Shown one piece after another: positions 15,446 through 62,703 of a DNA stretch of 64,000 nt. Made by a program: the position numbers and the translations under genes. The notes below the pieces were generated by a model. It had not been told where the DNA came from. It did not search any database and saw only the letters and a program-made list of their open reading frames with translations. Every line of letters starts with the position of its first letter. The first letter of the stretch is position 1. This stretch comes from Squalus acanthias (Eukaryota): assembly GCA_030390025.1 (NCBI GenBank), contig JASTWF010000339.1, positions 1 through 64,000 on the forward strand, given 5' to 3'.

Positions 15446-17546
15446 AACACAGATATTACCCACATAATCCCACGTCAATTAGACATTGCACACAGCTTCT
15501 GATAGTTATTAACAAGACTAAACCTATGCTTCGAACCAAAAAATTATTGCATCCTCCCACCCACTAAAACATATGTCTTTATTTATATTAATGTCTGTCT
15601 GTCTATCTATGAATGAAAGACAGGATCTGGTACAGTAATAACTGAGACAGGGTCTCGTAAAGTAATAACTGAGACAGGGTCTCGTGTAATATAAACAGAG
15701 ACAAGGTCTAATGTAATATAAACAGAGACGAGGTCGAGTGTAATATAAACAGAGACAAGGTCTAGTGTATTATAAACAGAGACAGGGTCTAGTGTAATAT
15801 AAACAGAGACGGGGTCTAGTGTAATATAAACAGAGCCCGGGTCTAGTGTAATATAAACAGAGACGGGGTCACGTGTAATATAAACAGAGACGGGGTCTAG
15901 TGTATTATAAACAGAGACGGGGTCTAGTGTAATATAAACAGAGACGTGGCCTAGTGTAATATAAACAGAGATGGGGTCTAGTGTAATATAAACAGAGACG
16001 GGGTCTAGTGTAATATAAACAGAGACGGGGTCTAGTGTAATATAAACAGAGATGGGGGTCTAGTGTAATATAAACAGAGACGGGGTCGAGTGTAATATAA
16101 AAAGAGATGGGGTCTAGTGCAATATAAACAGAGACGGGGTCTAGTGTAATATAAACAGAGACTGGGTGTTGTAATATGCACAGAGACAGGGTCGAGTGTA
16201 ATATAAACAGAGAGGGGACCTAGTGTAATATAAACAGAGACGGGGTCTAGTGCAATATAAACAGAGATGGGGTCCAGTGTAATACAAACAGGGACAGGGT
16301 CTAGTGTAATATAAACAGAGACCGGGTGTTGTAATATACACAGAGACAGGGTCCAGTGTAATATAAACAGAGATGGGGTCCAGTGTAATATAAACAGAGA
16401 CAGGGTCCAGTGTAACATAAACAAAGATGGGGTCTAGTGTAATATAAACAGAGATGGTGTCTAGTGTAATATAAATAGAGACGGGGACTAGTGTAATATA
16501 AACAGAGACGGGGCCTAGTGTAATATAAACAGAGACCGGGTGTTGTAATATACACAGAGACAGGGTCTAGTGTAATATAAACAGAGACAGGGTCTGGTGA
16601 AATATAAACAGAGACAGGGTCTGGTGAAATATAAACAGAGACAGGGTCTGGTGCAATATAAACAGAGACAGGGTCTGGTGTAATATAAACAGAGAAAGGG
16701 TCTGGTGTAATATAAACAGAGACAGGGTCCAGTGTAATATAAACAGAGACAGGGCCTAGTGTAATAAACAGAGACAGGGTCTAGTTTAATATAAACAGAG
16801 ACAGGGTCTAGTGTAACATAAACAGAGACAGGGTCCAGTGTAAAATAAACAGAGACAGGGTCTAGTCTAATATAAACAGAGACAGCGTCTAGTGTAATAT
16901 AAACAGAGACAGCGTCTAGTGTAATATAAACAGAGACAGGGTCTAGTGTAATATAAACAGAGACAGTGTCTCGTGTAATATAAACAGTGATGTGGTCTGG
17001 TGTAATATAAACAGAGACAGGTCGAGTGCAATATAAACTAAGACAGGGCCCAGTGCAATATAAACAGAGACAGGGTCTAGTGTAAAATAATCAGAAAAAG
17101 TTCTGGTGCAATAATAACTGAGACAGGGTCTAGTGTAATATAAACTGAGACAGGGTCTAGTGTAATATCCACAGGGACAGGGTCTAGTGTAAAATAAAAA
17201 GAGATAGTATCTAGTCTTCTATAAACAGAGACAGGGTCTAATGTAATATAAACAGTGACAGGTTGTAGAGTAATATAAACAGAGTAGGGTCTAGTGTAAT
17301 ATAAACAGAGACAGGGTCTAGTGTAATATAAACAGAGACAGGGTCTAGTGTAATATAAACAGAGACGGGGTCCAGTGTAATTTAATCAGAGATCGGGTCT
17401 AGTGTAATATAAACAGAGACATTGTCTAGTGCAATATAAACGGAGACAGTGTCTCATGTAATATAAACAGAGCCAGGGTCTTATGTAATATCAACAGAGA
17501 CAGGGTATAGTGTAATAAAAACAGAGACAGGGTCTAGTGTAATATA

Positions 17547-17679
17547 ATAGCAAAATACTGCAGATGCTGGAAATCCGAAATAACAACAGAAAACGCTGGA
17601 AAAACTCAGCAGGCCAGGCAGCATCCGTAGAGAGAGAAAGAGAGTTGACGTTTCAGGTCGATGACCTTTCAATCAGAAC
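17547..17679 (-). mobile_element. Short 3'-terminal fragment of a second Penelope-like family, inserted in the satellite
   Basis: Matches the 3' end of the PLE remnant at 53845-53975 (GATGCTGCCTG.CCTGCTGAGT...CCAGC.TTTTCTGTTGTTATT); carries a damaged hammerhead-like core CTGATTGA-AGGTCATCGACCT-GAAACGT. Confidence 0.7.
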
Positions 17680-19480
17680 AGGATCTGGTGCAATATTAAC
17701 AGAGACGGGGTCCAGTGTATTATGAACAGAGACCGGGTCTATTTTAATATAAACAGAGACATGGTCTAGTGTAATATAAGCAGAGACAGGGTCAGGTGTA
17801 ATATAAACAGAGAAAGAATCTAGTGTAATATGAAGAGATACAGGGTCTAGTGTAATATAAAAAGAGACAGGGTCTAGTGTAAAATAAACAGCGATGGGGA
17901 CTAGTGTAATTCAAACAGAGATATGGTCTTGTGTAACAGAAACAGAGACTGGGTCAAGTGTAATATAAACAGAGACAAGGTCTCGTTTAATCTAAACAGA
18001 AACCGGGTCTATTGTAATATACACAGAGACAGGGTCTTGTGTAAAACAAACAGAGATAGTGTCTAGTCTTCTATAAACAGAGACAGGGTCTAATGTAATA
18101 TAAACAGTGACAGGTTGTAGAGTAATATAAACAGAGTAGGGTCTAGTGTAATATAAACAGAGACAGTGTCTAGTGTAATATAAACAGAGACGGGGTCCAG
18201 TGTAATATAATCAGAGATCGCGTCTAGTGTAATATAAACAGAGACATTGTCTAGTGCAATATAAACAGAGACAGTGTCTCGTGTAATATAAACAGAGACA
18301 GGGTCTTATGTAATATCAACAGAGACAGGGTCGAGTGTAATATAAGCAGAGACAGGGTCTAGTGTACTATAAACAGAGACAGGATCGAGTGTAATATAAG
18401 CAGAGACAGCGTTTAGTGTAATATAAACAGAGACAGGGTCTAGTGTAATATAAACAGAGACAGGGTCTAGTGTAATATAAACAGAGACAGGGTCTAGTGT
18501 AATATAAACAGAGACAGAGTCTAGTGTAATATAAACAGAGACAGGTTCTCGTGTAATATAAACTGAGACAGGGTCTCGTGTAATTTAAACAGTGATGGGG
18601 TCCAGTGTAATATAAACAGAGACGGGGTCCAGTGTAATATAATCAGAGATCGCGTCTAGTGTAATATAAACAGAGACATTGTCTAGTGCAATATAAACAG
18701 AGACAGTGTCTCGTGTAATATAAACAGAGACAGGGTCTTATGTAATATCAACAGAGACAGGGTCGAGTGTAATATAAGCAGAGACAGGGTCTAGTGTACT
18801 ATAAACAGAGACAGGATCGAGTGTAATATAAGCAGAGACAGCGTTTAGTGTAATATAAACAGAGACAGGGTCTAGTGTAATATAAACAGAGACAGGGCTC
18901 GTGTAATATAACCAGAAACCGGGTCTTTTGTAATATCCACAGGGACAGGGTCTAGTGTAATATAAACAGAGACAGTGTCGAGTGTAATATAAGCAGAGAC
19001 AGCGTTTAGTGTAATATAAACAGAGACAGGGTCTAGTGTAATATTAACAGAGACAGGGTCTAGTGTAATATAAACAGAGACAGGGTCAGGTATAATATAA
19101 ACAGAGAAAGAGTCTAGTGTAATACAAAGAGATACAGGGTCTAGTGTAAAATAAGCACAGGCAGTGTCTAGTGTAAAATAAACAGCGACGGGGTCTAGTG
19201 TAATTCAAACAGAGACAGGGTCTAGTGAAATATAAACAGAGACAGGGTCTAGTGTAATTCAAACAGAGACAGGGTGTAGTGAATTATAAACAGAGACTGG
19301 GTCAAGTGTAAAATAAACAAAGACAGGGTCTAGTGTAATATAAACAGAGACAGAGTCTCGTGTATTATAAACATAAACCGGCTCTATTGTAAAATATACA
19401 GCGACAGGGTCTAGTGTAATAGAAACAGAGACTGGGTCAAGTGTAATATAAACAGAGACAGGGCTGGTGTAATATAAACA

Positions 19481-19953
19481 GGCGGCCTTCGAGACACACG
19501 ACAATGCAAAATCATCGAGCAGAAACTGATAGCCAAGTTCCGCACCCATGAGGACGGCCTCAATTGGGATCTCGGGTTCATGTCACGCTACAGAACGTGA
19601 CTCGACATCGTTGTCTGTCTTCCCCGTTTAAAAAAAAAAACAAAAAAAAAAGGTTAAAAACTCAACGACAGACAGCAGGATTTGAGACGTTGGACCCCCT
19701 GTGACCCATCTCATTGTCTTGGCTGTGCTCTGGTGTGTCTTTGATGTAATGCATCCCTGAAAGATTGTATCTCTGCAGTTTCTGTGTTTATATACTGTGC
19801 AATATTGTAGAATCCCACATTGTACCTTTACCTGACAAAGGGGCAGCAGCTCCGAAAGCTTGTTATTTTAAATAAATCTGTTGGACTATAACGTGGTGTT
19901 GTGCGACTTCTCATTTTTGTCCACCCCAGTCCAACACCGGCATCTCCGCATCA
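19481..19953 (+). mobile_element. 5'-truncated Penelope-like element (end of GIY-YIG + 3' terminal region)
   Basis: Encodes KIIEQKLIAKFRTHEDGL...GFMSRYRT*; ends ...GGCATCTCCGCATCA; TAATATAAACA is duplicated at 19470-19480 and 19954-19964. Confidence 0.92.
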
Positions 19954-22036
19954 TAATATAAACAGAGACAAGGTCTCGTGTAATATAAACAGAAACCGGG
20001 TCTATTGTAATATAAACAGAGAGAGGGTCTAGTGTAAAACAAACAGAGATAGGGTCCAGTCTTATATAAACAGAGACAGGATCTAGTGTAATATAAACGG
20101 AGACAGGTTCTCGTGTAATATAAACAGAGACGGGGTCTAGTGTAATATAAACAGAGACAGGTTCTCGAGTAATATAAACAGAGACAGGGTCTAGTGTCAA
20201 ATAAACAGAGACAGGGTCTAGTGTAATATAAACAGAGACTGGGTCTAGTGAAATATAAACAGAGACAGGGTCAGGTATAATATAAACAGAGAGAGAGAGA
20301 GAGTCTAGCGTATTATAAAGAGATACAGGGTCTAATGTAATATAAACAGAGGCAGTGTCTAGTGTAAAATTACCAGCGACGGGGTCTACTGTAATTCAAA
20401 CAGAGACAGGGTCTAGTGTAATATAAACAGAGACTGGGTCAAGTGTAATATAAACAGAGACAGGTTATCGTGTAATATAAACAGAGACAGGGTCTAGTGT
20501 AATATAAACAGAGACAGGGTCCAGTGCAGAATAAAAAGAGACAGGGTCTACTGTAATATAAACAGAGACAGGTCGAGTGCAATATAAACTGAGACAGGGC
20601 CCAGTGCAATATAAACAGAGACAGGGTCTAGTGCAATATCCACAGGGACAGGGTCTAGTGCAAAATAAACAGAGATGATGTGTAGTCTTATATAAAGAGA
20701 GACAGGGTCTAATGTAATATAAACAGTGACAGGTTATAGAGTAATTTAAACAGAGTAGGGTCTAGTGTAATATAAACAGAGACGGGGTCCAGTGTAATAT
20801 AATCAGAGATCGGGTCTAGTGTAATATAAACAGAGACATTTTCTAGTGCAATATAAACAGAGACAGTGTCTCGTGTAATACAAACAGAGACAGGGTCTTA
20901 TGTAATATCAACAGAGACAGGGTATAGTGCAATATAAACAGTGACAGGGTCGAGTGTAATATAAGCAGAGACAGCGTTTAGTGTAATATAAACAGAGACA
21001 GGGTCAGGTATAATATAAACAGAGAGAGAGAGAGTCTAGTGTAATATAAAGAGATACAGGGTCTAATGTAATATAATCAGAGGCAGTGTCTAGTGTAAAA
21101 TTAACAGCGACGGGGTCTAGTGTAATTCAAACAGAGATAGGGTCTAGTGTAATATAAACAGAGACTGGGTCTAGTGTAATATAAACAGAGACAGGTTCTC
21201 GTGTAATATAAACAGAGACAGGGTCTCGTGTAATATAAACAGAGACAGGGTCTTGAGTAATATAAAAAGAGAAATGGTCTAGTGTAATATAAACAGAGAC
21301 AGGGTCTAGTGTAAAATAAACAGAGACAGGGTCTAGTGTAATTAAACAGAGACAGGGTCCAGTGTAATATAAACAGAGACAGGGTCTAGTGTAATATAAA
21401 CAGAGACAGGTTCTCGTGTAATATAAACAGAGACCGGGTCTCGTGTAATATAAACAGTGATGGTGTCTAGTGTATTATAAACAGAGACAGGGTCTAGTGT
21501 AATATAAACAGAGACAGGTTCTCGTGTAATATAAACAGAGACAGGTTCTCGTGTAATATAAACAGAGACAGGGTCTAGTGTAATATAAACAGAAACAGTT
21601 CTGGTGCAGTAATAACTGAGACAGGGTCTAGTGTAATAAAAACAGAGACAGGGTCTAGTGTAATATAAACTGTTACAGGGTCTAGTGCAATATAAAAGAG
21701 ACAGGGTCGAGTGTAATACAAACAGAGACATGGTCTCGTGTAATAGAAAGTTAGACTGGGTCTAGTGTAATATAAACAGAGACAGGGCTGGTGTAATATA
21801 ACCGGAGACAGGGTCTCGTGAAATATAAACAGAAACCGGGTCTATTGTTATATAAACAGAGACAGGGTCTAGTGTAATATACACAGAGACAGGGACTAGT
21901 GTAATATCCACAGGGACAGGTTCGAGTGTAATATAAGCAGAGACAGCGTTTAGTGTAATATAAACAGAGACAGGTTCTAGTGTAATATTAACAGAGACAT
22001 GGTCTAGTATAATACTCCACATCATAGTATAATATA

Positions 22037-24873
22037 AGAAGTCGCACAACACCAGGTTATAGTCCAACAGATTTATTTAAAATTACAAGCTATTGGAGCT
22101 GTCGCTCCTTCTTCAGGTAGGGTAGCTGTGAGAGAATCTCCCAGAATTCACAATATAAACACAGAAAAAATGTATTCAAATCTTTCCCTACATCAAAGAC
22201 ACACTAAGAGCACAGCCAAGACAATGAGATGTGTCCCAGGGGGGCTGCATATCCTCTCCATTTGTATTAGGTTCTTGTGTTAGTTTTTTTTAAAAAAAAA
22301 CCTGGAAAGACCGGCCATGATGTCAAGTCACGTTCTGTATCGTGACATGAACCCGATATCGCGATTGAGGCCATCCTCATGAGTGCGGAACTTGGCTATC
22401 AGTTTCTGCTCTATGATTTTGCGCTGTCGTGTATCCCGAAGGCCGCCTTGGAGAACTCTTACCCGCAGATCCGAGGCTGAATGCCCCTGACTGCTGAAGT
22501 GTTCCCCGACTGGGAGGCAACCCTCCTGCCTGGCGATTGTTGCGCGGTGTCCGTTCATACGTTGTCTCAGTGTCTGCATGGTCTCGCCGATGTACCATGC
22601 TCTGGGGCATCCTTTCCTGCAACGTATGAGGTAGACAACGTTGGCCGAGTCACATGAGTATGTACCATGTACCTGGTGGGTAGTGTCCTCACGTGTGATG
22701 ATGGTATCTGTGTCCATGATCTGGCATGTCTTGCAGAGGTTGCTGTGGCAGGGTTGTGTGGTGTCGTGGTTGCTGTTCTCCTGAAAGATGGGTAATCTGC
22801 TGCGAACGATGGTACTTTTGAAGTTAGGCGGCTGCTTGAAGGCGAGTAGTGGAGGCGTGGGGATGGCCTTAGCAAGGTGTTCGCCGTCATCGATGACATG
22901 TTGAAGGCTGCGAAGAACATGGCGTAGTTTTTCCGCTCCGGGGAAGTACTGGACGACGTAGGGTACTCTGTTGGTTGTGTCCCGTGTTCATCTTCTGAGG
23001 AGGTCTATGCGGTTTTTCGCTGTGGCCCGTCGGAACTGTCGATCGACGAGTCGAGCGTCATATCCCGTTCTTACGAGGGCATCTTTCAGTGTCCGTAGGT
23101 GTCCATCGCGTTCCTCCTCGTCTGAGCAGATCCTGTGTATTCGCAGGGCTTGTCCATAGGGGATGGCTTCTTTAACGTGATTAGGGTGGAAGCTGGAGAA
23201 GTGGAGCATCGTGAGGTTGTCCGTGGGCTTGCGGTAGAGTGAAGTGCTGAGGCGTCCGTCTTTGATGGAGATTCGTGTGTCCAAGAATGAAACCGATTCT
23301 GAGGAGTAGTCCATGGTGAGTTTGATGGTGGGATGGAACCTGTTGATGCTATCGTGTAGTCCTTTCAGTGATCCTTCGCCGTGGGTCCAAAGGAAGAAGA
23401 TGTCGTCGATGTATCTGGTGTACAGCGTTGGTTGGAGGTCCTGTGCAGCGAAGAAGTCTTGCTCGAACTTGTGCATGAAGATGTTGGCGTATTGGGGTGC
23501 GAATTTGGTCCCCATGGCTGTTCCGTGTGTTTGGGTAAAAAAATGGTTGTCGAAGGTGAAGACATTGTGGTCAAGGATGAAGCGGATGAGTTGTAGGATG
23601 GCATCCGGAGATTGGCTGTTGTTGGTGTTGAGTACTGAGGCTGTCGCAGCGATGCCGTCATTGTGGGGGATATTGGTGTAGAGTGCCGATACGTCCATCG
23701 TGACGAGGAGTGTTCCTGGTTCAACTGGTCCATGGGTGCTGAGTTTCTGCAAGAAGTCTGTAGTGTCGCGACAGAAGCTGGGGGTTCCCTGTACGATGGG
23801 TTTCAGGATGCCCTCGACGTACCCAGAGAGGTTCTCACACAGGGTTCCGTTGCCTGATACGATAGGACGTCCGGGTGTGTTGGCTTTGTGTATCTTTGGG
23901 AGGCAGTAAAAGTCTCCTACGCGGGGAGTATGTGGGATGAGAGCGCGTAGGATGTTTTGAAGGTCTGGATCGAAGGTCTTGATCAGTCTATTGAGTTGGC
24001 GGGTGTGTTCTTTGGTCGGATCTGCGGGTAGCTGTCTGTAGTGTTCCTGGTTGTCCAGTTGTCGGTATGCTTCTTTGCAATGGTCCATTCTGTTCTGTAT
24101 GACAATGGCTCCTCCTTTGTCCGCTGGTTTGATGACGATGTTGCGGTTGGTCTTGAGAGCGTGGATGGCGTTGCGTTGTGCTCGGGTGACATTCTGGACT
24201 GTCTTGTGAGTACGGCTGATGAATCTGGCGTTGATGCATTTCCTGACAGCTTGAGCATACATGTCAAGCTTAGGGTTGCGACCCTCCGGAGGGGTCCAAT
24301 TTGACTCTTTCTTCCTCGGTTGTAGCACTGCGGTTCCCTCTGTCTGCTGTTCCGGATCATTGATTGTCTCATTAGGAATGTTGCTGACATCTTGGGATTT
24401 GTGGTAGTATTCCCAGATCCTCATTCTCCTGATGAATTCCTCTGTGTCTGCCGCGAGACCGATGGGGTCCATTTTTGTGGTGGGGCAGAACTTGAGCCCT
24501 AGGGCGAGAACTTCGATTTCGTCTGGTTGAAGGGTGTGGTCCGACAGGTTGACGATGGACTTCCCTGTGGTTGCAACCGTGGTACCGGGGGAGGCTTGGT
24601 TGCAGCTGGTGGTTACGCCGAGTTTCTCAAGCTTCCTGTTCTTGATGCGCATGTAGGCAGCGTAGTTCCGTTGCCTCGTCTGTTTGGCGGTGTCTCGTAG
24701 CTGGTCTGCTGTGTCCTGAGCACAGGCTGAGAGCATGGACTCTATCTTGGTTTCGAGGTTGCGACGTCTGCTGTAGAGCTGGTGTACGAGATGGTTGAGG
24801 AGTGTGCGAGAGGTACGACGGCAAAGTCTCTCAGCGTAGTCTGTGTTGTATGTCGACTTGAGTGGGTTCGTGA
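22037..24873 (-). mobile_element. Penelope-like element, inverted (left) arm; RT + GIY-YIG with one nonsense codon
   Basis: ORFs 22988..24736 and 22328..22717 are in the same frame, separated by a CGA>TGA change at 22988-22990; reverse complement of 24936-27795. Confidence 0.96.
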
Positions 24874-24874
24874 C

Positions 24875-27481
24875 ACAGACATCAAGTACCTGCAGAGATG
24901 CAAGAAAGCAGACAAGATTCCGAAAGGACTACAGATCACGAACCCACTCAAGTTGACATACAACACAGACTACGCTGAGAGACTTTGCCATCGTACCTCT
25001 CGCACACTCCTCAACCATCTCGTACACCAGCTCTACAGCAGACGTCGCAACCTCGAAACCAAGATAGAGTCCATGCTCTCAGCCTGTGCTCAGGACACAG
25101 CAGACCAGCTACGAGACACCGCCAAACAGACGAGGCAACGGAACTACGCTGCCTACATGCGCATCAAGAACAGGAAGCTTGAGAAACTCGGCGTAACCAC
25201 CAGCTGCAACCAAGCCTCCCCCGGTACCACGGTTGCAACCACAGGGAAGTCCATCGTCAACCTGTCGGACCACACCCTTCAACCAGACGAAATCGAAGTT
25301 CTCGCCCTAGGGCTCAAGTTCTGCCCCACCACCAAAATGGACCCCATCGGTCTCGCGGCGGACACAGAGGAATTCATCAGGAGAATGAGGATCCGGGAAT
25401 ACTACCACAAATCCCAAGATGTCAGCAACATTCCTAATGAGACAATCAATGATCCGGAACAGCAGACAGAGGGAACCGCAGTGCTACAACCGAGGAAGAA
25501 AGAGTCAAATTGGACCCCTCCGGAGGGTCGCAGCCCTAAACTTGACATGTATGCTCAAGCTGTCAGGAAATGCATCAACGCCAGATTCATCAGCCGTACT
25601 CACAAGACAGTCCAGAATGTCACCCGAGCACAACGCAACGCCATCCACGCTCTCAAGAGCAACCGCAACATCGTCATCAAACCAGCGGACAAAGGAGGAG
25701 CCATCGTCATACAGAACAGAATGGACTATTGCAAAGAAGCATACCGACAACGGGACAACCAGGAACACTACAGACAGCTACCCGCAGATCTGACCAAAGA
25801 ACACACCCGCCAACTCAATAGACTGATCAAGACCTTCGATCCAGACCTTCAAAACATCCTACGCGCTCTCATCCCACGTACTCCCCGCGTAGGAGACTTT
25901 TACTGCCTCCCAAAGATACACAAAGCCAACACACCCAGACGTCCTATCGTATCAGGCAACGGAACCCTGTGTGAGAACCTCTCTGGGTACGTCGAGGGCA
26001 TCCTGAAACCCATCGTACAGGGAACCCCCAGCTTCTGTCGCGACACTACAGACTTCTTGCAGAAACTCAGCACCCATGGACCAGTTGAACCAGGAACACT
26101 CCTCGTCACGATGGACGTATCGGCACTCTACACCAATATCCCCCACAATGACGGCATCGCTGCGACAGCCTCAGTACTCAACACCAACAACAGCCAATCT
26201 CCGGACGCCATCCTACAACTCATCCGCTTCATCCTTGACCACAATGTCTTCACCTTCGACAACCATTTTTTTACCCAAACACACGGAACAGCCATGGGGA
26301 CCAAATTCGCACCCCAATACGCCAACATCTTCATGCACAAGTTCGAGCAAGACTTCTTCGCTGCACAGCACCTCCAACCAATGCTGTACACCAGATACAT
26401 CGACGACATCTTCTTCCTTTGGACCCACGGCGAAGGATCACTGAAAGGACTACACGATAGCATCAACAGGTTCCATCCCACCATCAAACTCACCATGGAC
26501 TACTCCTCAGAATCGGTTTCATTCTTGGACACACGAATCTCCATCAAAGACGGACGCCTCAGCACTTCACTCTACCGCAAGCCCACGGATAACCTCACGA
26601 TGCTCCACTTCTCCAGCTTCCACCCTAACCACGTTAAAGAAGCCATCCCCTATGGACAAGCCCTGCGAATACACAGGATCTGCTCAGACGAGGAGGAACG
26701 CGATGGACACCTACGGACACTGAAAGACGCCCTCGTAAGAACGGGATATGACGCTCGACTCGTCGATCGACAGTTCCGACGGGCCACAGCGAAAAACCGC
26801 ATAGACCTCCTCAGAAGACGAACACGGGACACAACCAACAGAGTACCCTACGTCGTCCAGTACTTCCCCGGAGCGGAAAAACTACGCCATGTTCTTCGCA
26901 GCCTTCAACATGTCATCGATGACGGCGAACACCTTGCTAAGGCCATCCCCACGCCTCCACTACTCGCCTTCAAGCAGCCGCCTAACCTCAAAAGTACCAT
27001 CGTTCGCAGCAGATTACCCATCTTTCAGGAGAACAGCAACCACGACACCACACAACCCTGCCACAGCAACCTCTGCAAGACATGCCAGATCATGGACACA
27101 GATACCATCATCACACGTGAGGACACTACCCACCAGGTACATGGTACATACTCATGTGACTCGGCCAATGTTGTCTACCTGATATGTTGCAATAAAGGAT
27201 GCCCCAGAGCATGGTACATCGGCGAGACCATGCAGACACTGAGACAACGTATGAACGGACACCACGCAACAATCGCCAGGCAGGAGGGTTGCCTCCCAGT
27301 CGGGGAACACTTCAGCAGTCAGGGGCATTCAGCCTCGGATCTGCGGGTAAGCGTTCTCCAAAGCGGCCTTTGGGATACACGACAGCGCAAAATCATAGAG
27401 CAGAAACTGATAGCCAAGTTCTGCACTCATGAGGATGGCCTCAATCGCGATATCAGGTTCATGTCACGATACAGAACGTGA
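24875..27481 (+). CDS. PLE polyprotein: reverse transcriptase + GIY-YIG endonuclease (5'-truncated, open frame)
   Basis: IKPADKGG, YCLPKIHK, RPIVS, TMDVSALYTNI, GTAMG..FAP.YANIFM, RYIDDIF, FLD, Cys-containing linker (PCHSNLCKTC), VVYLI.C..C...WYIGET...LRQRMNGH. The first ~31 aa of ORF 24782..27481 derive from the inverted arm and are not native. Confidence 0.93.
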   Translation, partial: TDIKYLQRCKKADKIPKGLQITNPLKLTYNTDYAERLCHRTSRTLLNHLVHQLYSRRRNLETKIESMLSACAQDTADQLRDTAKQTRQRNYAAYMRIKNRKLEKLGVTTSCNQASPGTTVATTGKSIVNLSDHTLQPDEIEVLALGLKFCPTTKMDPIGLAADTEEFIRRMRIREYYHKSQDVSNIPNETINDPEQQTEGTAVLQPRKKESNWTPPEGRSPKLDMYAQAVRKCINARFISRTHKTVQNVTRAQRNAIHALKSNRNIVIKPADKGGAIVIQNRMDYCKEAYRQRDNQEHYRQLPADLTKEHTRQLNRLIKTFDPDLQNILRALIPRTPRVGDFYCLPKIHKANTPRRPIVSGNGTLCENLSGYVEGILKPIVQGTPSFCRDTTDFLQKLSTHGPVEPGTLLVTMDVSALYTNIPHNDGIAATASVLNTNNSQSPDAILQLIRFILDHNVFTFDNHFFTQTHGTAMGTKFAPQYANIFMHKFEQDFFAAQHLQPMLYTRYIDDIFFLWTHGEGSLKGLHDSINRFHPTIKLTMDYSSESVSFLDTRISIKDGRLSTSLYRKPTDNLTMLHFSSFHPNHVKEAIPYGQALRIHRICSDEEERDGHLRTLKDALVRTGYDARLVDRQFRRATAKNRIDLLRRRTRDTTNRVPYVVQYFPGAEKLRHVLRSLQHVIDDGEHLAKAIPTPPLLAFKQPPNLKSTIVRSRLPIFQENSNHDTTQPCHSNLCKTCQIMDTDTIITREDTTHQVHGTYSCDSANVVYLICCNKGCPRAWYIGETMQTLRQRMNGHHATIARQEGCLPVGEHFSSQGHSASDLRVSVLQSGLWDTRQRKIIEQKLIAKFCTHEDGLNRDIRFMSRYRT

Positions 27482-27712
27482 CTTGACATCATGGCCGGTC
27501 TTTCCAGGTTTAAAAAAAAAAAAACTAACACAAGAACCTAACACAAATGGAGAGGATATGCAGCCAGCAGGTGTTTTGACACGTTGGACCCCCTGGGACA
27601 CATCTCATTGTCTTGGCTGTGCTCTTAGTGTGTCTTTGATGTAGGGAAAGATTTCAATACATTTTTTCTGTGTTTATATTGTGAATTCTGGGAGATTCTC
27701 TCACAGCTACCC

Positions 27713-27748
27713 TACCTGAAGAAGGAGCGACAGTTCCGAAAGCTTGTA
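27713..27748 (+). ncRNA. Minimal type-I hammerhead ribozyme motif in the PLE 3' terminal region
   Basis: TAC-CTGAAGA-AGGAGCGACAGTTCC-GAAA-GCTT-GTA: core CUGANGA/GAAA/UH, stem II, palindromic AAGCUU stem III, stem I TAC/GTA. Confidence 0.75.
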
Positions 27749-30700
27749 ATTTTAAATAAATCTGTTGGACTATAACCTGGTGTTGTGCGACTTCTCATTT
27801 TTGTCCACCCCAGTCCAACGCCGGCATCTCCACATCATAGTATAATATAAACAGAGACAGGGTCAGGTATAACATAAACAGAGAAAGAGTCTAGTGTAAT
27901 ATAAAGAGATACAGGGTCTAATGTAATATAAAGAGAGGCTGTCTCTAGTGTAAAATAAACAGCGACGGGGTCTAGTGTAATTCAAACAGAGACAGGGTCT
28001 AGTGAAATATAAACAGAGACTGGGTCAAGTGTAAAATAAACAAAGACATGGTCTAGTGTAATATAAACAGAGACAGGGTCTCGTGTAATATAAACAGAAA
28101 CCGGCTCTATTGTAATATAAACAGCGACAGGGTCTAGTGTACTATCAACATTGACAGGGGCTAGTGTATATCAAAAGAGACAGGTTCTAGTGTAATATAA
28201 ACAGAGACAGGGTCGAGAGTAATATAAACAGAGACGGGGTCTAGTGTAAAATAAACATAGACCGGGTCTAGTATAATATAAACTGAGACATGGTCGAGTG
28301 TAATATAACCAGAGACATTGTCCAGTGTAATATAAGCAGAGACAGGGTCTAGAGTAATATAAACAGAGACAGGGTCTGGTGTAATATAAACAGTGCAAGG
28401 GTGTAATGTAATATAAACAGCGACAGGGTCTAGTATAATACAAACAGAGACAGGGTCTAGTGTTATATAAACTGAGTTAGGGTCTCGTTTAATATAAACA
28501 GAGACAGGGTCAGGTATAATATAAACAGAGAAAAAGTCTAGTGTAATATAAAGAGATACAGGGTCTTAGGTAATATAAACATAGACAGTGTGCAGTGTAT
28601 AATAAACAGAGACGGGGTCTAGTGTAATTCAAACAGAGACAGGGTCTAGTGTAATATAAACAGAGACAGGGTCTCGTGTAGTATAAACAGAAACCGGCTC
28701 TAGTGTAAAATAAACAGAGACAGGGTCTCGTGTAATATAACCAGTGACAGGGACCAGTGTAATATCAACAGAGACAGGTTCTAGTGTAATTTAAACAGAG
28801 ACAGGGTCTAGTGTAATATAAACAGAGACTGGGTCAAGTGTAATATAAACAGAGACAGGGCTGGTTTAATATAAACAGAGACAGGGTCTCGTGTAATATA
28901 AACAGAAACCGGGTCCATTATAATATAAACAGAAACAGGGTCTAGTGTAACATAAACAGAGACAGGGTCTCATGTAATATAAACAGTGACGGGGTCCAGT
29001 GTAAAATAAACAGAGACAGTGTCGAGTATAATATAAACTGAGACAGGGACCAGTGCAATATAAAAAGAGACAGGGTCTAGTGTAATATAAACAGAAACAG
29101 TTCTATTGCAGTAATAACTGTTACAGGGTCTAGTGTAATATAAAAGAGACAGGGTCTAGTTCAATATAAACAGAAGCCGAGTCTAGTGCAATATAAACAG
29201 AAGCAGGGTCTAGTGTAATATAACCAGAGACAGGTTAGAGTGTAAAATAAACAGAGACAGGGTCTAGTGTAATATAAACAGATACAGTTCTGGTGCAGTA
29301 ATAACTGAGACAGGGTCGAGTGTAACTTAAACAGAGACGGGGTCTAGTGTAATATAAACTGTTACAGGGTCTAGTGTAATATAAAAGAAACAGGGTCTAG
29401 TTTAATATAAACAGAAGCCGCGTCTAGTGCAATATAAACAGAAGCAGGTTCCAGTGTAATATAAACAGAGACAGGGTCTGGTGTAATATAAACAGAGACA
29501 GGGTCTTTTGTAATATAAAGAGAGACAGGGTCTAGTGTAATATAAACAGAGACAGGGACTTGTGTAATATAAACAGAGACAGCGTCTAGTGTAATATAAA
29601 CAGAGACAGGGTCTAGTGTAATATAAACTGAGACAGGGTCTAGCGTAATATAAACAGAGACAGGGTCAGGTGTGAAATAAACAGAGAAAGAGTCTAGTGT
29701 AATATAAAGAGATTCAGGGTCTAGTGTAATATAAACAGAGACAGGGTCTAGTGTAATATAAACAGAGACAGCGTCCAGTGTAATATAAACAGAGACAGGG
29801 TCTAGTGTAATATAAACAGAGACATGGTCTGGTGTAATATAAACAGAGACTGGGTCAAGTGTAAAATAAACAGAGACAGGGTCTAGTGTAATATAAACAG
29901 AGACAGGGTCTAGTGTAATATAAACAGAGACAGGGTCTAGTGTAATACAAACAGAGACAGGATCTAGTGTGATGTAAACAGGGACAGGGTGTTCTGCCAT
30001 AATAAGTGTGACTGGAGCTAATGTAATAAACAGAGATGCGTTCTAATATAAAATACACAGCGACATGGTCCAGTACAGTAATAACTGAGATGGTGCCTGC
30101 GCATAGTAGAATTTAAACTGACCCATGATTGATTGCGGTGATAATTGAGACAGGGCTGAGTGAAATTTGCACAAAGTATGGTCCAGTGCAATATTAAATG
30201 AAACAGGGCCTAGTGTCATCTAAACAGAGACACTATCTAGTGCAGTCAGAACTGAGAAAGTGTCCAGTGCAATTTTAACAGAGACAGTGTCTAGTGCAGT
30301 AATAAATGAGACATGGTCTGGTATAATATAAACAGAGTCGGAGTCTAGTGTAATATAAACAGAGACAGGGTCTGGTGTAATATAAACAGAGACAGGGTCC
30401 AGTGTAATATAAACAGAGACAGGGTCTAGTGTAATATAAACAGAGACAGGGTCCAGTACAATATAAACAGAGACAGTGTCTAGTGCAGTAATAAATGAGA
30501 CATGGTCTGGTATAATATAAACAGAGTCGGGGTCTAGTGTAATATAAACAGAGGCAAGGTTTTCACCATTAGAAGTGAGACTGGAGCTAATGTACAAATC
30601 AAAGACGCGGTCTAATGGAATATACACAACAACAGTGTCCAGTGCAATAATAATTAAGGCAGGGTCTAGTGCAATATAAAAAGAGACAGGGTGCAGTGCA

Positions 30701-31272
30701 ATGATAATTCAGACAAGGCCGCGTGTAATATAAACGGAGACAGGGTCTAGTGTAATATAAACAGAGACAGGGTCTAGTGTAATATAAATAGAGCTAAGGT
30801 CTACTGTAATATAAACAGAGACAGGGCCTAGTGTAATATAAACAGAGACAGGGTCTAGTGTAATATAAACAGAGACAGGGCCTAGTGTAATATAAACAGA
30901 GACAGGGTCTAGTGTAATATAAACAGAGACAGGGTCTAGTGTAATATAAACAGAGACAGGGCCTAGTGTAATATAAACAGAGAAAGGGTATGGTGTAATA
31001 TAAACAGAGACAGGGTCTAGTGTAATATAAACAGAGACAGGGTCTAGTGTAACATAATCAGAGACAGGGTCTAGTGTAATATAACCGGAGACAGGGTCTA
31101 GTGTAATATAAACAGAGACAGGGTCTAGTGTAATATAAAAAGAGACAGGGTCTAGTGTAATATAAACAGAGACAGGGCCCAGTGTAATATAAACAGAGAC
31201 AGGGTCTAATGTAATATAAACAGAGACAGGGCCTAGTGTAATATAAACAGAGACAGGATCTAGTGTAATATA

Positions 31273-32033
31273 GTGGAGATGCCGGCGTTGGACTGGGGTG
31301 GACAAAAATGAGAAGTCGCACAACACCAGGTTATAGTCCAACAGATTTATTTAATTTTACAAGCTTTTGGAGCTGTTCGCTCCTTCCTCAGGTAGGTTAG
31401 CAGTGAGAGAATCTCCCAGAATTCACAATTTAAACACAGACAAAATCTATTCAAATCTTTCCCTACATCAAAGACACACTAAGAGCACAGCCAAGACAAT
31501 GAGATGTGTCCCAGGGGGTCCAACGTGTCAAACCACCTGCTGGCTGCATATCCTGTCAATTTGTGTTGGTTCTTGTGTTAGTCCTTTTAAAAAAAAAACA
31601 AACACCTGGGAAGACCGGCCATGATGTCAAGTCACATTCTGTATCGTGACATGAACCCGATATCGCGATTGAGGCCATCCTCATGAGTGCGGAACTTGGC
31701 TACGTGACTTGACATCATGGCCGGTCTTCCCAGGTGTTTGTTTTTTTTTTTAAAAAGACTAACACAAGAACCAACACAAATTGACAGGATATGCAGCCAG
31801 CAGGTGGTTTGACACGTTGGACCCCCCTGGGACACATCTCATTGTCTTGGCTGTGCTCTTAGTGTGTCTTTGATGTAGGGAAAGATTTGAATAGATTTTG
31901 TCTGTGTTTAAATTGTGAATTCTGGGAGATTCTCTCACTGCTAACCTACCTGAGGAAGGAGCGAACAGCTCCGAAAGCTTGTAAAATTAAATAAATCTGT
32001 TGGACTATAACCTGGTGTTGTGCAACTTCTCAT
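31273..32033. mobile_element. Non-autonomous fold-back Penelope derivative (~760 bp)
   Basis: Arms ~31308-31635 and 31703-32033 are inverted copies of the PLE 3' region; the extra tail is only on the left; TAGTGTAATATA is duplicated at 31261-31272 and 32034-32045. Confidence 0.93.
31947..31983 (+). ncRNA. Minimal hammerhead ribozyme motif
   Basis: TAC-CTGAGGA-AGGAGCGAACAGCTCC-GAAA-GCTT-GTA; the mirror copy at 31358-31394 has GAAA>AAAA. Confidence 0.75.
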
Positions 32034-32594
32034 TAGTGTAATATAAACAGAGAGAGGGCCTAGTGTAATATAAACAGAGACAGGGTCTAGCGTAATATAA
32101 ACAGAGACAGGGCCCAGTGTAATATAAACAGAGACAGGGTCTAATGTAATATAAACAGAGTCAGGGTCTAGTGTAATATAAACAGAGACAGGGTCTAATG
32201 TAATATAAACAGAGTCAGAGTCTAGTGTAATATAAACAGAGACAGGGACTAGTGAAATATTAACTGAGGCAGGGTCTAGTGTAATATAAACAGAGACAGG
32301 GTCCAGTGTAATTTAAAAACATACAGACTCTGCACTCTGTCAATTAATCCCCTCACACTTCATGTCCCTGCTCTCAGACTGCGGGGTTCACGGTTTATTT
32401 TCTATCCAATCATTCTCGAAATATTCTGATCATTGAAGGCTGTCACATTCCATTTGTGCAATGCCTGTTTAATTGTTTTTTGTAATGTTACTATTGTTGG
32501 GACTGAAATGGTTAACTTGGTCTGTTTGTTTAACGACTGTAATTAATGTCAGTTCCCAGGGAATCTGCTCGTCTCTCTGGAGTTTTTACTCTAA

Positions 32595-37821: not shown

Positions 37822-39517
37822 GATCCCGTTCCTTTCTCCTGGTGACTCCTGGAAGGTGTCCAATAAGGTAGAGTAGCACAGCACTCACTCCTTTTAAGAG
37901 AAGTCCTCAGAGAATTTCCAGAATAAATGTTGATGGAGTGTTGGTGAAGTCTTGACGAAGTTTCCTAGAAAGTCTCCCGATGAGTTTCAAAAGTCCTCTT
38001 CAAAGCTCCAGCAGCAAGTGGACAGTAAAAGGCGATGTCCCTTTAAACAGCGCTCCAAATCTTCAGCAGCTACGCGTTTACTCCCAATCAGCTGGTCGCT
38101 GTTAGGAGAGGGCGTCAGGTCCAGCGCCGGCCACCAGAATGCCACGAAGCATCGTTAATGAGCGCTAGCAGGCAAGTTAAGTGGCAATTAGCTGCTTAAT
38201 GAACCTCCGGCGGCCGTTCATAGCGCAAGCTTCAACTCCTTGACCAAGATGGCGTCTTGCGTTAAACGGGGGCTAAACCGGTGTTTCAGCTTAAGACCCC
38301 AGTCTGGCCACCTTGGAGGCTCTTCAGCGCCTAAGGTATCTGGGGAACATCGCCGCCTCCCCACCCCTCCATCCCTTCTTATGAACTTTTGAATAGCTCA
38401 TGATGTCGTTCCGCCCTTCCGACGGGGGTGGCGCTGTAGCGCCTCAGCTTTGCGTTTCCCGACTCTGCAGCTCATAATTTAGAGAGATTCCGCTGCTCCA
38501 ACCCATGTCTCTGACTCCCAAACCGTAGAAAATGTTGCTACTTGGCCTCGACTCCCCATGTGCAACACCGCGGGAGATCATGTGGTAATAATATAAAATC
38601 ACAGTGCTAGGTATAAAAACGGCAGAATATGTCACTTTAAAATGGGACGTGGACAACATCTGTCCACCCTGGTCCGATTAACCCCGCCCTCTAACCCTGC
38701 TGCACCCGAAGACCACACCTGGTCTTAACTCCCCTATCTAACACTACAGGAGGTTGACTGTTATTCCCTACAACCAATATTTCCCAAGCAAGTACTCAGT
38801 CCCATTTTCCAGGCCTCCGTTGATTTTGGCTGTCTGATAACGTGTGCTGTACAACCTCGCATCCGTTCTGGGAAAACGCTGTCAACTGGCTGTACCTGGA
38901 ATCCTAACATGATGCCCCGTAGTTCTAGATTCCCCTACTAGAGAGAAGAGTTGTGTTATGTTATCTGTGTCTTCCTTAATTAGTCTACCATTTCGATCAA
39001 ACCGTCACACAATCTCATTTCGACACATTTTAGTACAAATTCATTCGGTCTCTGCACTCAGTCCATTTATCCGTCTTCTCACGCTGGTGATTTCTCGCTG
39101 GACTTTCTCCAAGGTGAGTATTTCCTTGCTAAGGTTTGTGACCCACACTGAAAACAACATGATCTAATAATAGCAACATTGTTTTTAATTACATGTAACT
39201 GCTTCATAGCAATCAGCAAGTACAAGAGAAATATACGCAGCAGTCACACAGAACCTGACCCAGAAACACAGTATCGGACCAAGTAGATGGAGCTTTACAC
39301 GGTTTCTAACGCGTGTTGTTCCTTCCCTGGGAGTGTTTGATAACATGAGAACATACCAAATATGAGCAGGAGTAGGACATACGGCCCCTCGAGCCTGCTC
39401 CGCCATTCAATAAGATCATGGCTGATCTTCAACCTCAAATCCACTTTCCCGCCCCATCCCCATATCCCTTGATTCCATTTGAGTCCAAAAATCTATCGAT
39501 CTCAGCCTTGAATAAAC

Positions 39518-40018
39518 GCAAAATCATCGAGCAGAAACTGATAGCCAAGTTCCGCACTCATGAGGACGGCCTCAACCGGGATCTTGGTTTCATGTCACGA
39601 TATATGACGTAGAGTCATCCAGACTCGAGTCGTCGTTGGCTTGTTCACAGATGTGATTTCCAGTTAAAAAAAAGTAAAATTTTAAAGTTTATCGTTTTCC
39701 ATACCGACTGCAACTTTTGACACATTAGACCCCCTGTAACCCCACCTCATTGTCTCAGTTGTATCTTGCTATGTCTTTGATGTGGTGCCTTCCTGGCTGA
39801 CCTGATTGTTTATCTGCCGAGGTGTGACAAAAGGCAGTCAGGAAGATTAAATGTAGTCGTCTGCCATTGTACGTTACACATGCATTGTTCTCTATCTATA
39901 TATGCTTTGTCGATTTGTATTCCTTTACTTCACCTGACGAAGGAGCAGCCGCTCCGAAAGCTTGTGATTTCAAATAAAACTGTTGGACTATAACCTGGTG
40001 TTGTGCGACTTCTCACTT
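39518..40018 (+). mobile_element. 5'-truncated Penelope-like element nested in the CR1 3' end
   Basis: RKIIEQKLIAKFRTHEDGLNRDLGFMSRY; TTGAATAAAC is duplicated at 39508-39517 and 40019-40028. Confidence 0.93.
39930..39967 (+). ncRNA. Minimal hammerhead ribozyme motif
   Basis: TCAC-CTGACGA-AGGAGCAGCCGCTCC-GAAA-GCTT-GTGA. Confidence 0.78.
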
Positions 40019-43000
40019 TTGAATAAACTCAACAACTCAGCATCCACAGCCCTCTGGGCGAGAGAATTCAGAATATTGACAACCCTCTGAGTGAAGAAAT
40101 TTCTCCTCCTCTCAGTCTTAAATGGCCGACCCCTTATCCTGAGGGTATGCCCCTAGTTCTAGACACTCCAGCCAGGGGAAACAACCTCTCAGCATCTACC
40201 CTGTCAATCCCCTTCAGAATCTTGTATGTTTCAATGAGATCATCTCTCATTCTTCTAAACTCCAGAGAGTATAGGCCCATTCTACACAATCTCTCATCAT
40301 AGGACAGCCCTCTCATCCCAGGAATCAATCTAGGGAACCTTCGTTGCATCCCCTATAAAGGATGCATATCCTTCTTTACATACGGAGACTAAAACTGTAC
40401 ACCGTACTTCAGGTGTGGTCTCATCAAAGCCCTGTACAATTGTAGCAAGACTTGCTTACTGTTGTACTCCAAACCCCCTTGCAATAAATGCCAACATACC
40501 ATTTGCCTTCCTAATTGAATGCTGTACCTGCATGTTAACTTCCTCTGTTTCGTGTACAAGGACTGCCAAATCCCTCTGAACACCAACATTTAATAGTTTC
40601 TCACTCGTTAAAAAATATTTTCTTTTCAGATTCTTCCTACCAAAGAGCATTGGTTAAAGGACAGAAAACAAAGACTAGGAGTAAACTTGTAATTTTCAGG
40701 TTGAAAGGCTGTTACTGGTACAAGTATTAGTGTTGGGCCCTCAGCCAGTTACAATCTAAATTAATGACTTAGATGAAGGGATTATTACCCTGCTAATTAT
40801 ATCCTCAAAAGGTTGTAATAAATTATTCAAACACGATTTCCCTTTCATGAAACCATGTTGACTCTGCCCAATCATGTTATGATTTTCTCAGTGCCCTGTT
40901 ACCACTTCCTTAACAATGGATTGCAGCATCTTCCCGATGACTGATGTCAGGCTAACTGGCCAGTATTTCCCTGTTTTCTCTTTCCCACCTTTCTGGAGTA
41001 GCGGTGTTATATTTTCTATCTTTCATTCCACCGGGACAGTTCCAGAATCTAAGGAATTTTGGAAAATTGCTACCAATGCATCCATTATCTCTGCAGACAC
41101 CTCTTTGAGGATCTCAGGATGTGGGCCATCAGGTACAGGGGATTTGTCGGATTTTAGTCCCATTAATTTATCCAGTACTTTCTCTTTCCTAATATTAATT
41201 ACTTTAAGTTCCTCACTCTCATTAGACGATTGGCTCCCCATTATCTCTGGTCTGTTTTTAGTCTCTGTTACGGTGAAGACAGATACAAAATATTTTTAAC
41301 GTCTTTGACATTTCCTGATGCCCCATTATAAGTTCTACAGTCTCAGCCTCTAAGGGACCCACGTTTACTTTCGCTACTCTCTTCCTTTTTATATACTTGT
41401 AGAAGCTCTTAAAATCTGTTTCTATTTTCTCCTTCTTTATCACTATTTTGGCCATCCTTTGCTGGTTTTTGAAACTCTCCCAATCCTCAGGCTTACTATT
41501 CTTCTTGGCAACGTTATAAACCTCTTTTAATCTAATACTATTCTTATCCTCATTAATTAGTCATGGATGGATCACTTTTTCCGTGATGTTTTTATATCTC
41601 AATGAAATGTATATTTAATGAGAATTATGAAATATTTCTTTAAATGTTCACCTTTGCATATCTACCGCCATACCTTTTAATCTATTTTCCCAGTCTACCT
41701 TAGTTAACTCGCCACTTATACCTTTGTAATTGGCTTTAGTTAAGTTTAAGATTTTTGTTTCGGACTTAAGTACGTCACTCTTGAATTCAACGTGGAATTC
41801 TATTATGTTATGGTCACTCTTCCCCAGATTAGTAATTACCCCTGTCTCATTACACAAGACACGATCTAAAATAACCTCTTCCCTGGTTGCTTCCACGATG
41901 AATTGTTCTAGGAAAATCTCTCTCGTGCGTTCCATTAACTCTTCTTCAAAACTACTTTTGCCAATTTGATTTGTCGAGTCTATATGAAGATTAAGGTCCC
42001 CCACGATTATTGCATTACCTTTGTTAGAAGCTTCTCTTATTTCTTGATGAATACTCTGTCCAACAGTATAGATACTGTTCGGGTGGCCTACAAACTACTC
42101 CCACCAATGTTTTCTGTTCTTTGTTACTTCTTATTTCCACCCATACTGATTCTACTTCCTGGTCTTCTGAGCCAAGATCCTTCCACATTACTGTCCTTAT
42201 GTCATCCTTTATTATCAGTGCTACCCGCCCTCATTTTCCATTTTGTTTGTCTTTTCGGAATGTCAAGTACCCTGGAATATTATTTCCCAATGTTGGTTAA
42301 CCTGCAATCACGTCTTTGTAATGGCGATTAGATCAAACCCATTTATCACTATTTGTGTCATTAATTCCTCTATCTTGTTACGAATGCTTCGTGCATTCAG
42401 ATAAAGCATTTTAATATTAACCTTTTACCTTTTTCCCCTGATTTGACCGTATTCACTGATGCACTATTACTGTTAAACTCTCTGTCCCTCCCTGTCACAA
42501 TCTGCTTATCTTTATCCAATCGCTACACTGCTCTATGGACTTGAATTTTCTCTTTAGATTTTGTACGTTTCCCCTTACCTGATTTCTCCCCTTTTAATTT
42601 AAAGCCCTATCTACAGCCTCAGTTTTTCAATTCGCCGGAACATTGGTCACAGCCCGGTTTAAGTGGCTACTGTCCAAATGGAACAGCCCCCTCTTTCCCC
42701 AGTACTGTCGCGAGTGACCAATGAATCGAAACCCCTTCCTCCCATACCACTCTTTGAGCCACGCATTTAAACCTCTAATCTGTTTCATCCTGTGCCAATT
42801 TGCATGTGACTCTGGTAACAATCCAGAGATTATTAGCTTTAAGGTTCTGCTTTTTAATTTGGATCCTAGATACTCAAACTTCCTCAGCAGAACCTCATTT
42901 CTAGATCTACCGATGTCGTTGGATCCGACGTGGAACACGACAACTGGATCCTCCCTCTACCACTTCAAGTGCTTCTCCAACCGCGTGGAGAAGTTCTTAA

Positions 43001-44386: not shown

Positions 44387-44597
44387 TGATGTGGAGATGC
44401 CGGTGTTGGACTGGGGTGGACAAATGTGAGAAGTCGCACAACACCAGGTTATAGTCCAACAGCTTTATTTGAAATCACAAGCTTTCGGAGCGCTGCTCCT
44501 TCGTCTGACTTCACCTGACGAAGGAGCAGCGCTCCGAAAGCTTGTGATTTCAAATAAAGCTGTTGGACTATAACCTGGTGTTGTGCGACATCTCACA
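44387..44597. mobile_element. Non-autonomous fold-back Penelope derivative (~210 bp)
   Basis: Inverted arms of the PLE terminus around a ~12-nt loop; tail only on the left; TTAAATTAAATA is duplicated at 44375-44386 and 44598-44609. Confidence 0.92.
44511..44547 (+). ncRNA. Minimal hammerhead ribozyme motif
   Basis: TCAC-CTGACGA-AGGAGCAGCGCTCC-GAAA-GCTT-GTGA. Confidence 0.78.
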
Positions 44598-52747: not shown

Positions 52748-53311
52748 GTAAAGTATTGAGTTAGTTACTAGTTATGGGCATCATTGGTTAACTGTGTCAC
52801 AGCTTCTATTTACAGGGAACGCTTCTCCACTTTAACTCTGTCATTTCCGCCGTGTCACGGTATATTTTATCCCATTCAACGGAATAATTTCTCCCCTTTG
52901 ATGGTATAATTCCTCCCACTTTAACGTGATAATTTCTTCCCTTTGTCGACAACATTTCTCCCCTTCAATTTAATCACAATCTAATTTGAGTGCCTGATTC
53001 TGGAATTTGTGTTTTAATGTGTTTTCCACAGAGCCGCCTCTTCAGCGGTAACAGTCTATTTGCTCCGAATGATGTTTTATTAAAATTCAACAGTAGATGT
53101 CGCTGCACTGTGAGTGGTATCATCACACTATTCTAACTGTGTATATATATTTCCTATTGTGCTTTTGGTATTTCGCTGTGAGTGGTATTATCACACTATT
53201 CTAACTGTGTGCATATATTCCCTATTGCCTTATTGGTATTTCGCTGTGAGTGGTATAATTACAGTATTATAACGTTGTGCATTTATTTACTTGTACTTCT
53301 TGCAATTTAGA

Positions 53312-53978: not shown

Positions 53979-54027
53979 GTACATATATTTCCGATTGTGT
54001 TATTGGTGCTGTACTGGGATCCGTATT

Positions 54028-62205: not shown

Positions 62206-62433
62206 GACATTTCTACAGTGAACACTGCTGACCCCGAGAGTTCCTTCTGCTCCTAACACCTGGCAATGTTCCGGACTGTTCCCGTCTTCATTAATTGAGT
62301 GAGGCTGCATAACTGATGGCAGGTCTCGTAACTGAATCACAAAGTTTTAATGATGCAGAGATGCCGGTGTTGGACTGGGGTGGACAAAAGTGAGAAGTCG
62401 CACCAGGTTATAGTCCAACAGTTTTATTTGAAA

Positions 62434-62471
62434 TCACAAGCTTTCGGAGCTGCTGCCCCTTCGTCAGGTGA
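62434..62471 (-). ncRNA. Minimal hammerhead ribozyme motif (minus strand)
   Basis: Reverse complement reads TCAC-CTGACGA-AGGGGCAGCAGCTCC-GAAA-GCTT-GTGA. Confidence 0.75.
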
Positions 62472-62665: not shown

Positions 62666-62703
62666 TCACCTGACGAAGGGGCAGCAGCTCCGAAAGCTTG
62701 TGA
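62666..62703 (+). ncRNA. Minimal hammerhead ribozyme motif
   Basis: TCAC-CTGACGA-AGGGGCAGCAGCTCC-GAAA-GCTT-GTGA. Confidence 0.75.

Follow-up and report, generated by a model that had tools for sequence, protein, structure and literature searches.

Penelope-like element insertions in one AT-rich patch of a 27-bp satellite of Squalus acanthias, probably an opportunistic target

Published work describes Penelope-like elements (PLEs) as follows. A typical PLE insertion has an inverted pseudo-long terminal repeat (pLTR), an optional tail and target duplications of 8-10 bp, and is occasionally joined by microhomology (PMC3846280). A recent survey assigns vertebrate PLEs to Neptune or Poseidon (bioRxiv 10.64898/2026.07.22.740005). 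A CX2-5CxxC linker together with a CCHH motif is the motif set of Neptune and Nematis, and a bias towards insertion into repeats, with microsatellites as targets, has been proposed for linker-bearing clades (PMC8557442). Acting on AT-rich DNA in vitro, the purified protein of a lizard Poseidon nicks both strands and extends them; it starts reverse transcription at two sites, which delimit the tail, and its predicted form is a dimer (PMC11167929). Here we analysed a stretch of 64,000 nt from Squalus acanthias (contig JASTWF010000339.1, positions 1 to 64,000; hereafter the window), in which an array of 27-bp satellite units carries four PLE insertions. We consider it probable that the satellite was an opportunistic target, and that its look of a landing pad is explained, at the scale of the window, by a local preference of the elements for AT-rich DNA with TA steps.

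The array (Table 1) spans 16.7 kb, of which 9,489 bp are satellite bases once the inserts are subtracted, and its 349 units differ from the consensus at 2.7 positions on average. Apart from a 10-nt tail remnant, the only non-satellite stretches longer than 40 bp in it are four inserts, located at 17548-17677, 19481-19953, 22037-27837 (the 5.8-kb insert) and 31273-32033 (the 760-bp insert). Three of them belong to a Neptune-type family (family 1) and one to a second PLE family (family 2). Since the three family-1 inserts diverge by 6-14% from each other, they are independent insertions, and the proposal of the initial annotation that one satellite received four PLE insertions was borne out. The target duplications that it had reported for the three family-1 inserts were likewise found in place at both ends (Table 1). 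In the insert-free sister blocks at about 19061 and about 28867, which correspond to the 5.8-kb site and the 19481 site, respectively, the target is present as a single unit; the duplications at these two sites are therefore true target duplications. An empty sister block was also sought in the array for the other two inserts, and none was found for the family-2 site and none that is distinctive for the 760-bp site.

Both large inserts consist of two inverted arms, which differ by 1.5% (43/2,823) in the 5.8-kb palindrome and at 4 of 329 positions in the 760-bp palindrome; in each of them one end is tailed and the other end is 35-42 nt shorter. The tails do face opposite ways, as had been noted, lying at the right end of the 5.8-kb insert and at the left end of the 760-bp insert, but this is not a difference in orientation, because in an inverted arm pair the apparent orientation is merely a matter of which end bears the optional tail. 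Similarly, the 12-bp duplication of the 5.8-kb insert is present, but the exact repeat flanking this insert is 23 bp long (22015-22037 and 27828-27850), 10 nt of it being element tail. Its left junction is composed, in order, of a 10-bp target copy, the last 10 nt of the tail, the 12-bp target and the short arm, all of which are absent at the sister site. The family-2 fragment does start after unit position 12-13 as described before, but has no target duplication; a few unit bases were lost, and a short shared stretch forms the junction at its far end. It is 83-86% like the end of the family-2 copy at 53259-53981.

Table 1. Features of the satellite array, its PLE inserts and the PLE copies outside it (window coordinates)
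Feature	Position	Strand	Details
Tandem array, 27-bp units	15618..32317	+	About 9.5 kb of satellite bases, 349 units, short higher-order blocks
Family-2 PLE end	17548..17677	-	Hammerhead-like core near 17676; 3' end joined past unit position 12-13; no duplication
Target duplication, 11 bp, unit positions 6-16	19470..19480 (left); 19954-19964 (right)	+	TAATATAAACA; empty sister at 28867
Family-1 PLE, 5'-truncated, tailed, single arm	19481..19953	+	14% from the 5.8-kb copy
First target copy, 10 bp, unit positions 1-10	22005..22014	+	
10-nt tail remnant	22015..22024	+	Identical to the final 10 nt of the element tail (27828-27837); absent at the 19061 sister
Target duplication, 12 bp (13 counting a shared A)	22025..22036 (left); 27838-27849 (right)	+	TAGTATAATATA
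Left arm of the 5.8-kb palindrome, tailless	22037..24873	-	Stops 42 nt before the tail end; frame interrupted by one stop
Right arm of the 5.8-kb palindrome	24874..27837	+	62-nt spacer, 868-aa frame (24875-27481), pLTR, tail
Target duplication, 12 bp, unit positions 1-12	31261..31272 (left); 32034-32045 (right)	+	TAGTGTAATATA; homogeneous region, read by phase continuity
Left arm of the 760-bp palindrome	31273..31703	-	Tail (4 nt shorter than the other tails) and 68-nt spacer
Right arm of the 760-bp palindrome, tailless	31704..32033	+	
Control, family-1 copy interrupting a CR1	39517..40021	+	10-bp duplication TTGAATAAAC
Control, palindromic family-1 copy	44387..44596	.	13-bp duplication ATTAAATTAAATA, 11-nt spacer
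Control, family-2 PLE with endonuclease C-terminus remnant	53259..53981	+	Found by tblastn with PLE homologues
Control, palindromic family-1 copy	62351..62751	.	9-13-bp duplication TCACAAAGTTTTA, 26-nt spacer

The plus arm of the 5.8-kb insert holds an open, 5'-truncated frame of 868 aa with a reverse transcriptase (RT), a linker, a CCHH motif and a GIY-YIG endonuclease core, and the nearest named relatives of the protein are from sharks (82-90% identical). Pfam recognised the RT domain (RVT_1, E=1.7e-8) but did not match the GIY-YIG domain of this copy itself; the homologues carry PF01541, and the endonuclease core residues Y768, Y781, G783, R792, E842 and N857 are invariant. The CX4CxxC linker between RT and endonuclease (C729-X4-C734-X2-C737) is invariant across 8 aligned rows; C772, H796 and H812 of the CCHH motif are conserved, and the catalytic R, E and N are present. 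With a single frame of RT followed by GIY-YIG, a pLTR, an optional tail, inverted arms and short duplications, family 1 is, judging from its sequence, an endonuclease-containing (EN+) PLE, and its motifs place it as putatively Neptune-type. Family 2 is a predicted PLE as well, with an endonuclease C-terminus upstream of the shared end (tblastn matches of PLE homologues at 53259-53594, E down to 5e-13). Although minimal hammerheads have been reported for fish PLEs (PMC4209133), Rfam returned no hammerhead here; its three matches, all below the gathering score, are microRNA-hairpin artefacts of the 760-bp palindrome. A hammerhead core pattern matched at 31950, 39934, 44515 and 17676 and not in the other copies, and the folding of four pLTR pieces was no better than that of shuffles (z -1.1 to 0.5).

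The positions of the inserts were then compared with the composition of the unit. The 12-mers that begin at unit positions 1-7 have 10 A+T of 12, and those that begin at 14-21 have 5 or 6. The unit contains four TA steps (positions 1, 6, 9 and 11), all inside one 12-bp patch between GC-rich DNA. On the bottom strand the nicks map to unit positions 1, 1 and 6, and the top-strand nicks to 12-13, 12, 16 and 12-13; they thus occupy one patch with two target registers 5 nt apart. The earlier claim of a single phase for all inserts thus does not stand, the duplications beginning at unit position 1 twice and at position 6 once, but all inserts do use the AT-rich patch. As all four TA steps lie in this patch, the phase of the array insertions is explained; a common start for two of the three array duplications has P=0.26-0.39 among AT-rich phases.

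The window also provides controls, with three family-1 copies and one family-2 copy in the flanks, so that the two families together number four in the array and four outside. The three family-1 duplications in the flanks (10-13 bp) have A+T contents of 8/10, 13/13 and 10/13. Family 1 thus has no fixed target, three of its six copies being outside the satellite and those inside using two registers; none of the six family-1 duplications is in a microsatellite, a target bias that the literature proposes as a tendency and not as a defining trait. The arms of the two flank palindromes are 1.2% apart (1/80 and 2/166), and these palindromes share an age class with those of the array, arm divergence being 1.2-1.5% in all four. 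By length the array offers 17% of the target, but it holds 33-39% of the AT-rich 12-mers under four different rules, and for that reason four of eight inserts in the array is unremarkable (P(>=4/8)=0.24-0.39); under a fifth rule, TA at both ends, its share is 67% and P=0.91. At the scale of the window, therefore, density and phase both fit the AT-matched expectation, with eight inserts and low power, which is the outcome that the initial annotation had named as refuting its view, and the suggestion of a landing pad beyond AT content was not upheld.

A true preference, in which the family favours the satellite beyond its AT and TA content, perhaps through the CX4CxxC linker or the chromatin of the array, appears unlikely to us. 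In its favour are the presence within 9.5 kb of four inserts from two PLE families (by length P=0.033), the junctions, some of them deep (see below), that recur at two registers across three organisms, the reported bias of linker-bearing PLEs for simple repeats (PMC8557442), and the record of Penelope elements in chordate satellite arrays (bioRxiv 10.64898/2026.09.17.752431). However, the excess vanishes under the AT-matched control, copies of the same age sit in CR1 and in unique DNA, many tails continue into other DNA, and one patch was used by two unrelated families, which is easier to reconcile with a general preference than with specific recognition.

Public sequencing runs provided a broader view. 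The element end was found in at least 20 of them; the best share of words is 0.70, so the organism concerned (organism A) may differ from the species of the window. Joints were examined in four of 20 runs (X1, X3, X6 and X11) by comparing contigs with 27560-27925. Among the matches listed, fourteen joints to the satellite were obtained, 5 between satellite and satellite and 9 between a short element end and satellite. The latter, which come from three organisms and have six different element end points (27795-27801), confirm that the satellite was hit repeatedly. They lie at unit position 1 +/-1 (five joints) or 6-7 (four), none at 3-5, and all nine begin at most 1 nt from the TA at position 1 or 6 (post hoc P values 0.005 and 0.026). 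Detection of a joint needs about 20 letters per side and the second unit is diverged, which leaves positions past about 8 and reverse-strand joints poorly visible. That the two registers recur is better accounted for by a TA-step rule than by A+T content alone. On the tail side, 110 loose ends were counted in X1, 103 in X3 and 20 in X6, with none shown for X11, and among the matches listed they enter unlike AT-rich DNA, with agreement of 0.37-0.42. Contig depth is not copy number, and the enrichment bounds obtained from it are therefore rough and support neither side: 0.6-110-fold by length, 0.2-35-fold AT-matched, and 0.1-11-fold relative to TA-bounded sites. In each of three organisms (A, B and E) the 27-bp satellite and the PLE end are plentiful, so that both are common to several species.

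Several results speak against the view that local sequence alone accounts for the array. By length, four of eight inserts gives P=0.033, the array having been picked post hoc. The rules for AT-rich sites were devised after the sites were seen, and eight inserts give little power. TA directly follows the family-1 end at all five array ends, where the T may belong to the element, which favours that view, but only two of the five flank ends keep this rule. Some joints had depths of 120-664 (664 in X3), compared with 10-30 for single-copy-looking pieces, and these correspond to tens of element-satellite junction copies in organism A; moreover, the AT-matched bounds given above include a strong preference. 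Finally, among 12 non-PLE repeat events a strict target size gives P=0.043 for finding none in the array.

This last figure bears on the earlier observation that CR1, L2 and SINE are missing from the array. For CR1 the absence is real, protein matches covering 0 bp in the array and 14,370 bp in the flanks, but it is not significant. The flanks contain seven CR1 3' ends, for which the probability of none in the array is 0.27, or 0.16 when CR1 bodies are taken out of the target; for all 12 non-PLE repeat events it is 0.11. The abundance of CR1 in the flanks is one of length, not of number. At least one CR1 predates a PLE, and turnover of the array is ongoing; the lack of CR1 in the array is probably a consequence of the small number and great length of its insertion events, some of which predate the PLEs. 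In a blastn comparison of array and flanks each match fell in a PLE insert; this comparison covers shared DNA only, and L2 and SINE had no identification by library. Two CR1 copies (47949-51155 and 4209-7269) have long open frames, each split once, and are therefore probably young; five further CR1 3' ends are in the flanks.

The deep public joints could also arise without any preference, if elements landed at ordinary rates, were tolerated in the array and had their junctions multiplied by its turnover. Such turnover is seen: the higher-order structure comprises 19 block pairs with divergence of 0.4-9.6% (median 4.3%), obtained by a unit-level scan, which was used since a scan without gaps recovered only the homogeneous 30.7-31.3-kb region. 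Satellite blocks that bear transposable elements with identical duplications have been copied in other animals (bioRxiv 10.64898/2026.09.17.752431), and one joint, from 27800 to 27838, is shared by X1, X6 and X11, which represent three organisms. Yet no insert has been duplicated in this array, where the family-1 copies are 6-14% apart and differ in their ends, and the nine public joints show six element end points; we regard retention with copying as improbable, more so than a true preference. A block pair across the 5.8-kb site is 4.8% diverged compared with 1.5% for the insert arms, and is therefore older than the insert. Separately, a 9-unit duplication within the array (18171-18413 and 18603-18845) has 0.4% divergence, is very recent and postdates the PLE inserts.

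A PLE-satellite partnership, as the initial annotation had suggested, was not supported, because the unit is not PLE-derived and no insert was copied along with this array. An origin of the unit from a PLE was rejected at the nucleotide level (the score was equalled by 3 of 100 shuffles for family 1 and by 19 of 100 for family 2) and at the protein level (best score 40, equalled in 4 of 30 shuffles). For an origin from CR1 the only sign was one gapped 49-nt match, which was found in one copy, is absent from four other CR1 stretches and is probably due to chance. This match is the CR1 ORF2 segment at 49186-49234, which weakly resembles two satellite units (reached in 3 of 200 shuffles when the whole of the flank DNA is compared). 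There is no evidence that the 16.7-kb array is centromeric, its surroundings being CR1 and zinc-finger sequence. A 20-nt tail pattern, sought in metagenomes, gave three loci, all of them chance 20-22-nt matches within unrelated DNA.

The palindromes provide a clue to how the elements insert. In the four PLE palindromes the arms range from about 80 to 2,900 nt, yet the arm stops are only 11-68 nt apart, with spacers at 24873-24936 (62 nt), 31635-31704 (68 nt), 44505-44517 (11 nt) and 62555-62582 (26 nt). In two of the four the spacer is part of the tailed arm and in the other two part of the short arm, the 5.8-kb copy being judged by frame continuity. Fold-back of a tail-primed cDNA would put the spacer in the tailed arm only; simultaneous priming from both nicks therefore fits better, and is what the palindromes suggest, although four cases do not settle it. 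Following the probable reading of the satellite as an opportunistic target, the Neptune-type and the second PLE family would use target-primed reverse transcription to insert at AT-rich sites across the genome, where the two strands may be nicked with a stagger of 10-13 nt, frequently at TA steps. The satellite would offer one such site per 27-bp unit, so that array insertions would all fall in the patch and the array would receive two to three times as many insertions as its length predicts. Each nick might then prime a cDNA, one at the start site of the tail and the other 35-42 nt inside, and the two cDNAs would be joined head to head. The 10-nt remnant may stem from an aborted start, the same bond having been re-cut later, or from the second primer jumping onto the nascent cDNA. 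A stronger version seems doubtful as a whole. In it, a shark Neptune family would colonise a conserved 27-bp minisatellite throughout the genome and in several species, cutting it at two fixed TA registers several-fold more often than local sequence predicts, and the palindromes and the remnant would be fossils of a dimeric enzyme that primed both nicks simultaneously and whose two cDNAs stopped together.

Other contents of the window are CR1 retrotransposons, zinc-finger and GPCR-like (G-protein-coupled receptor) frames and several minisatellites. A C2H2 zinc-finger array of about nine fingers lies at 9335-10213, with a decayed match at 3904-4207, and a single-exon rhodopsin-family GPCR frame of 336 aa at 35860-36870 (7tm_1, E=1e-17). 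A third interspersed family has three copies 82-89% alike (3081-3851, 45745-46144, and 62786-63522 and 63112-63918); 63112-63918 overlaps a distant RT match and is possibly an L2-like long interspersed element. Other minisatellites (35, 67 and 68 bp) are at 46147-46580, 51198-52148, 53108-53287 and 55964-57358; the two 67/68-bp arrays, at 53.1 and 56 kb, show 71-75% similarity, and the edge of the 53.1-kb array is where the family-2 PLE starts.

Among the papers listed by literature searches, none concerns this PLE family or the 27-bp satellite, nor a shark PLE in a satellite, and passages of PMC12910113, PMC12602865 and PMC4350176 contain nothing on insertion targets. The case is a tidy natural instance of known PLE behaviour. 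It shares with Neptune-clade EN+ PLEs (PMC8557442) the single frame of RT and C-terminal GIY-YIG, the linker, the CCHH motif, the pLTR and the inverted insertions; unlike in that account, the elements here have inserted into a patch of a 27-bp minisatellite and into ordinary AT-rich DNA, and not into microsatellites. If the enrichment were true, repeat targeting by linker-bearing PLEs would extend from microsatellites to a complex minisatellite. The satellite-colonising transposons of a centromere atlas, with Penelope in chordate satellite arrays (bioRxiv 10.64898/2026.09.17.752431), are alike in this respect. PAc, the Poseidon of Anolis carolinensis (PMC11167929), resembles the shark family in nicking both strands of AT-rich DNA and in having two RT start sites, which in PAc bound a tail of 30-40 nt, the ends of the shark family differing by 35-42 nt. 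In contrast, Poseidon is without the linker and PAc prefers 5'-ATT-3', which here is on the primer strand in the position-6 register only and not in the position-1 register. With the repeated target and the empty sister sites, nick positions can be given to the exact base (registers 1 and 6, with staggers of 10-13), and the 27-bp unit is a ready in-vitro substrate for a Neptune endonuclease, the PLE reconstituted in vitro in the literature cited here being a Poseidon (PMC11167929). Insertions of the Pen2a_Av type from Adineta vaga (PMC3846280) are alike in their head-to-head ends, one optional tail, short duplications and some microhomology 5' joins without duplication. They differ in that their inverted part is a short pLTR, for which self-priming was proposed, whereas the shark palindromes have near-equal arms of up to 2.9 kb and a spacer in either arm; these near-equal arms bear on whether it is self-priming or priming at both nicks that gives rise to head-to-head PLE insertions.

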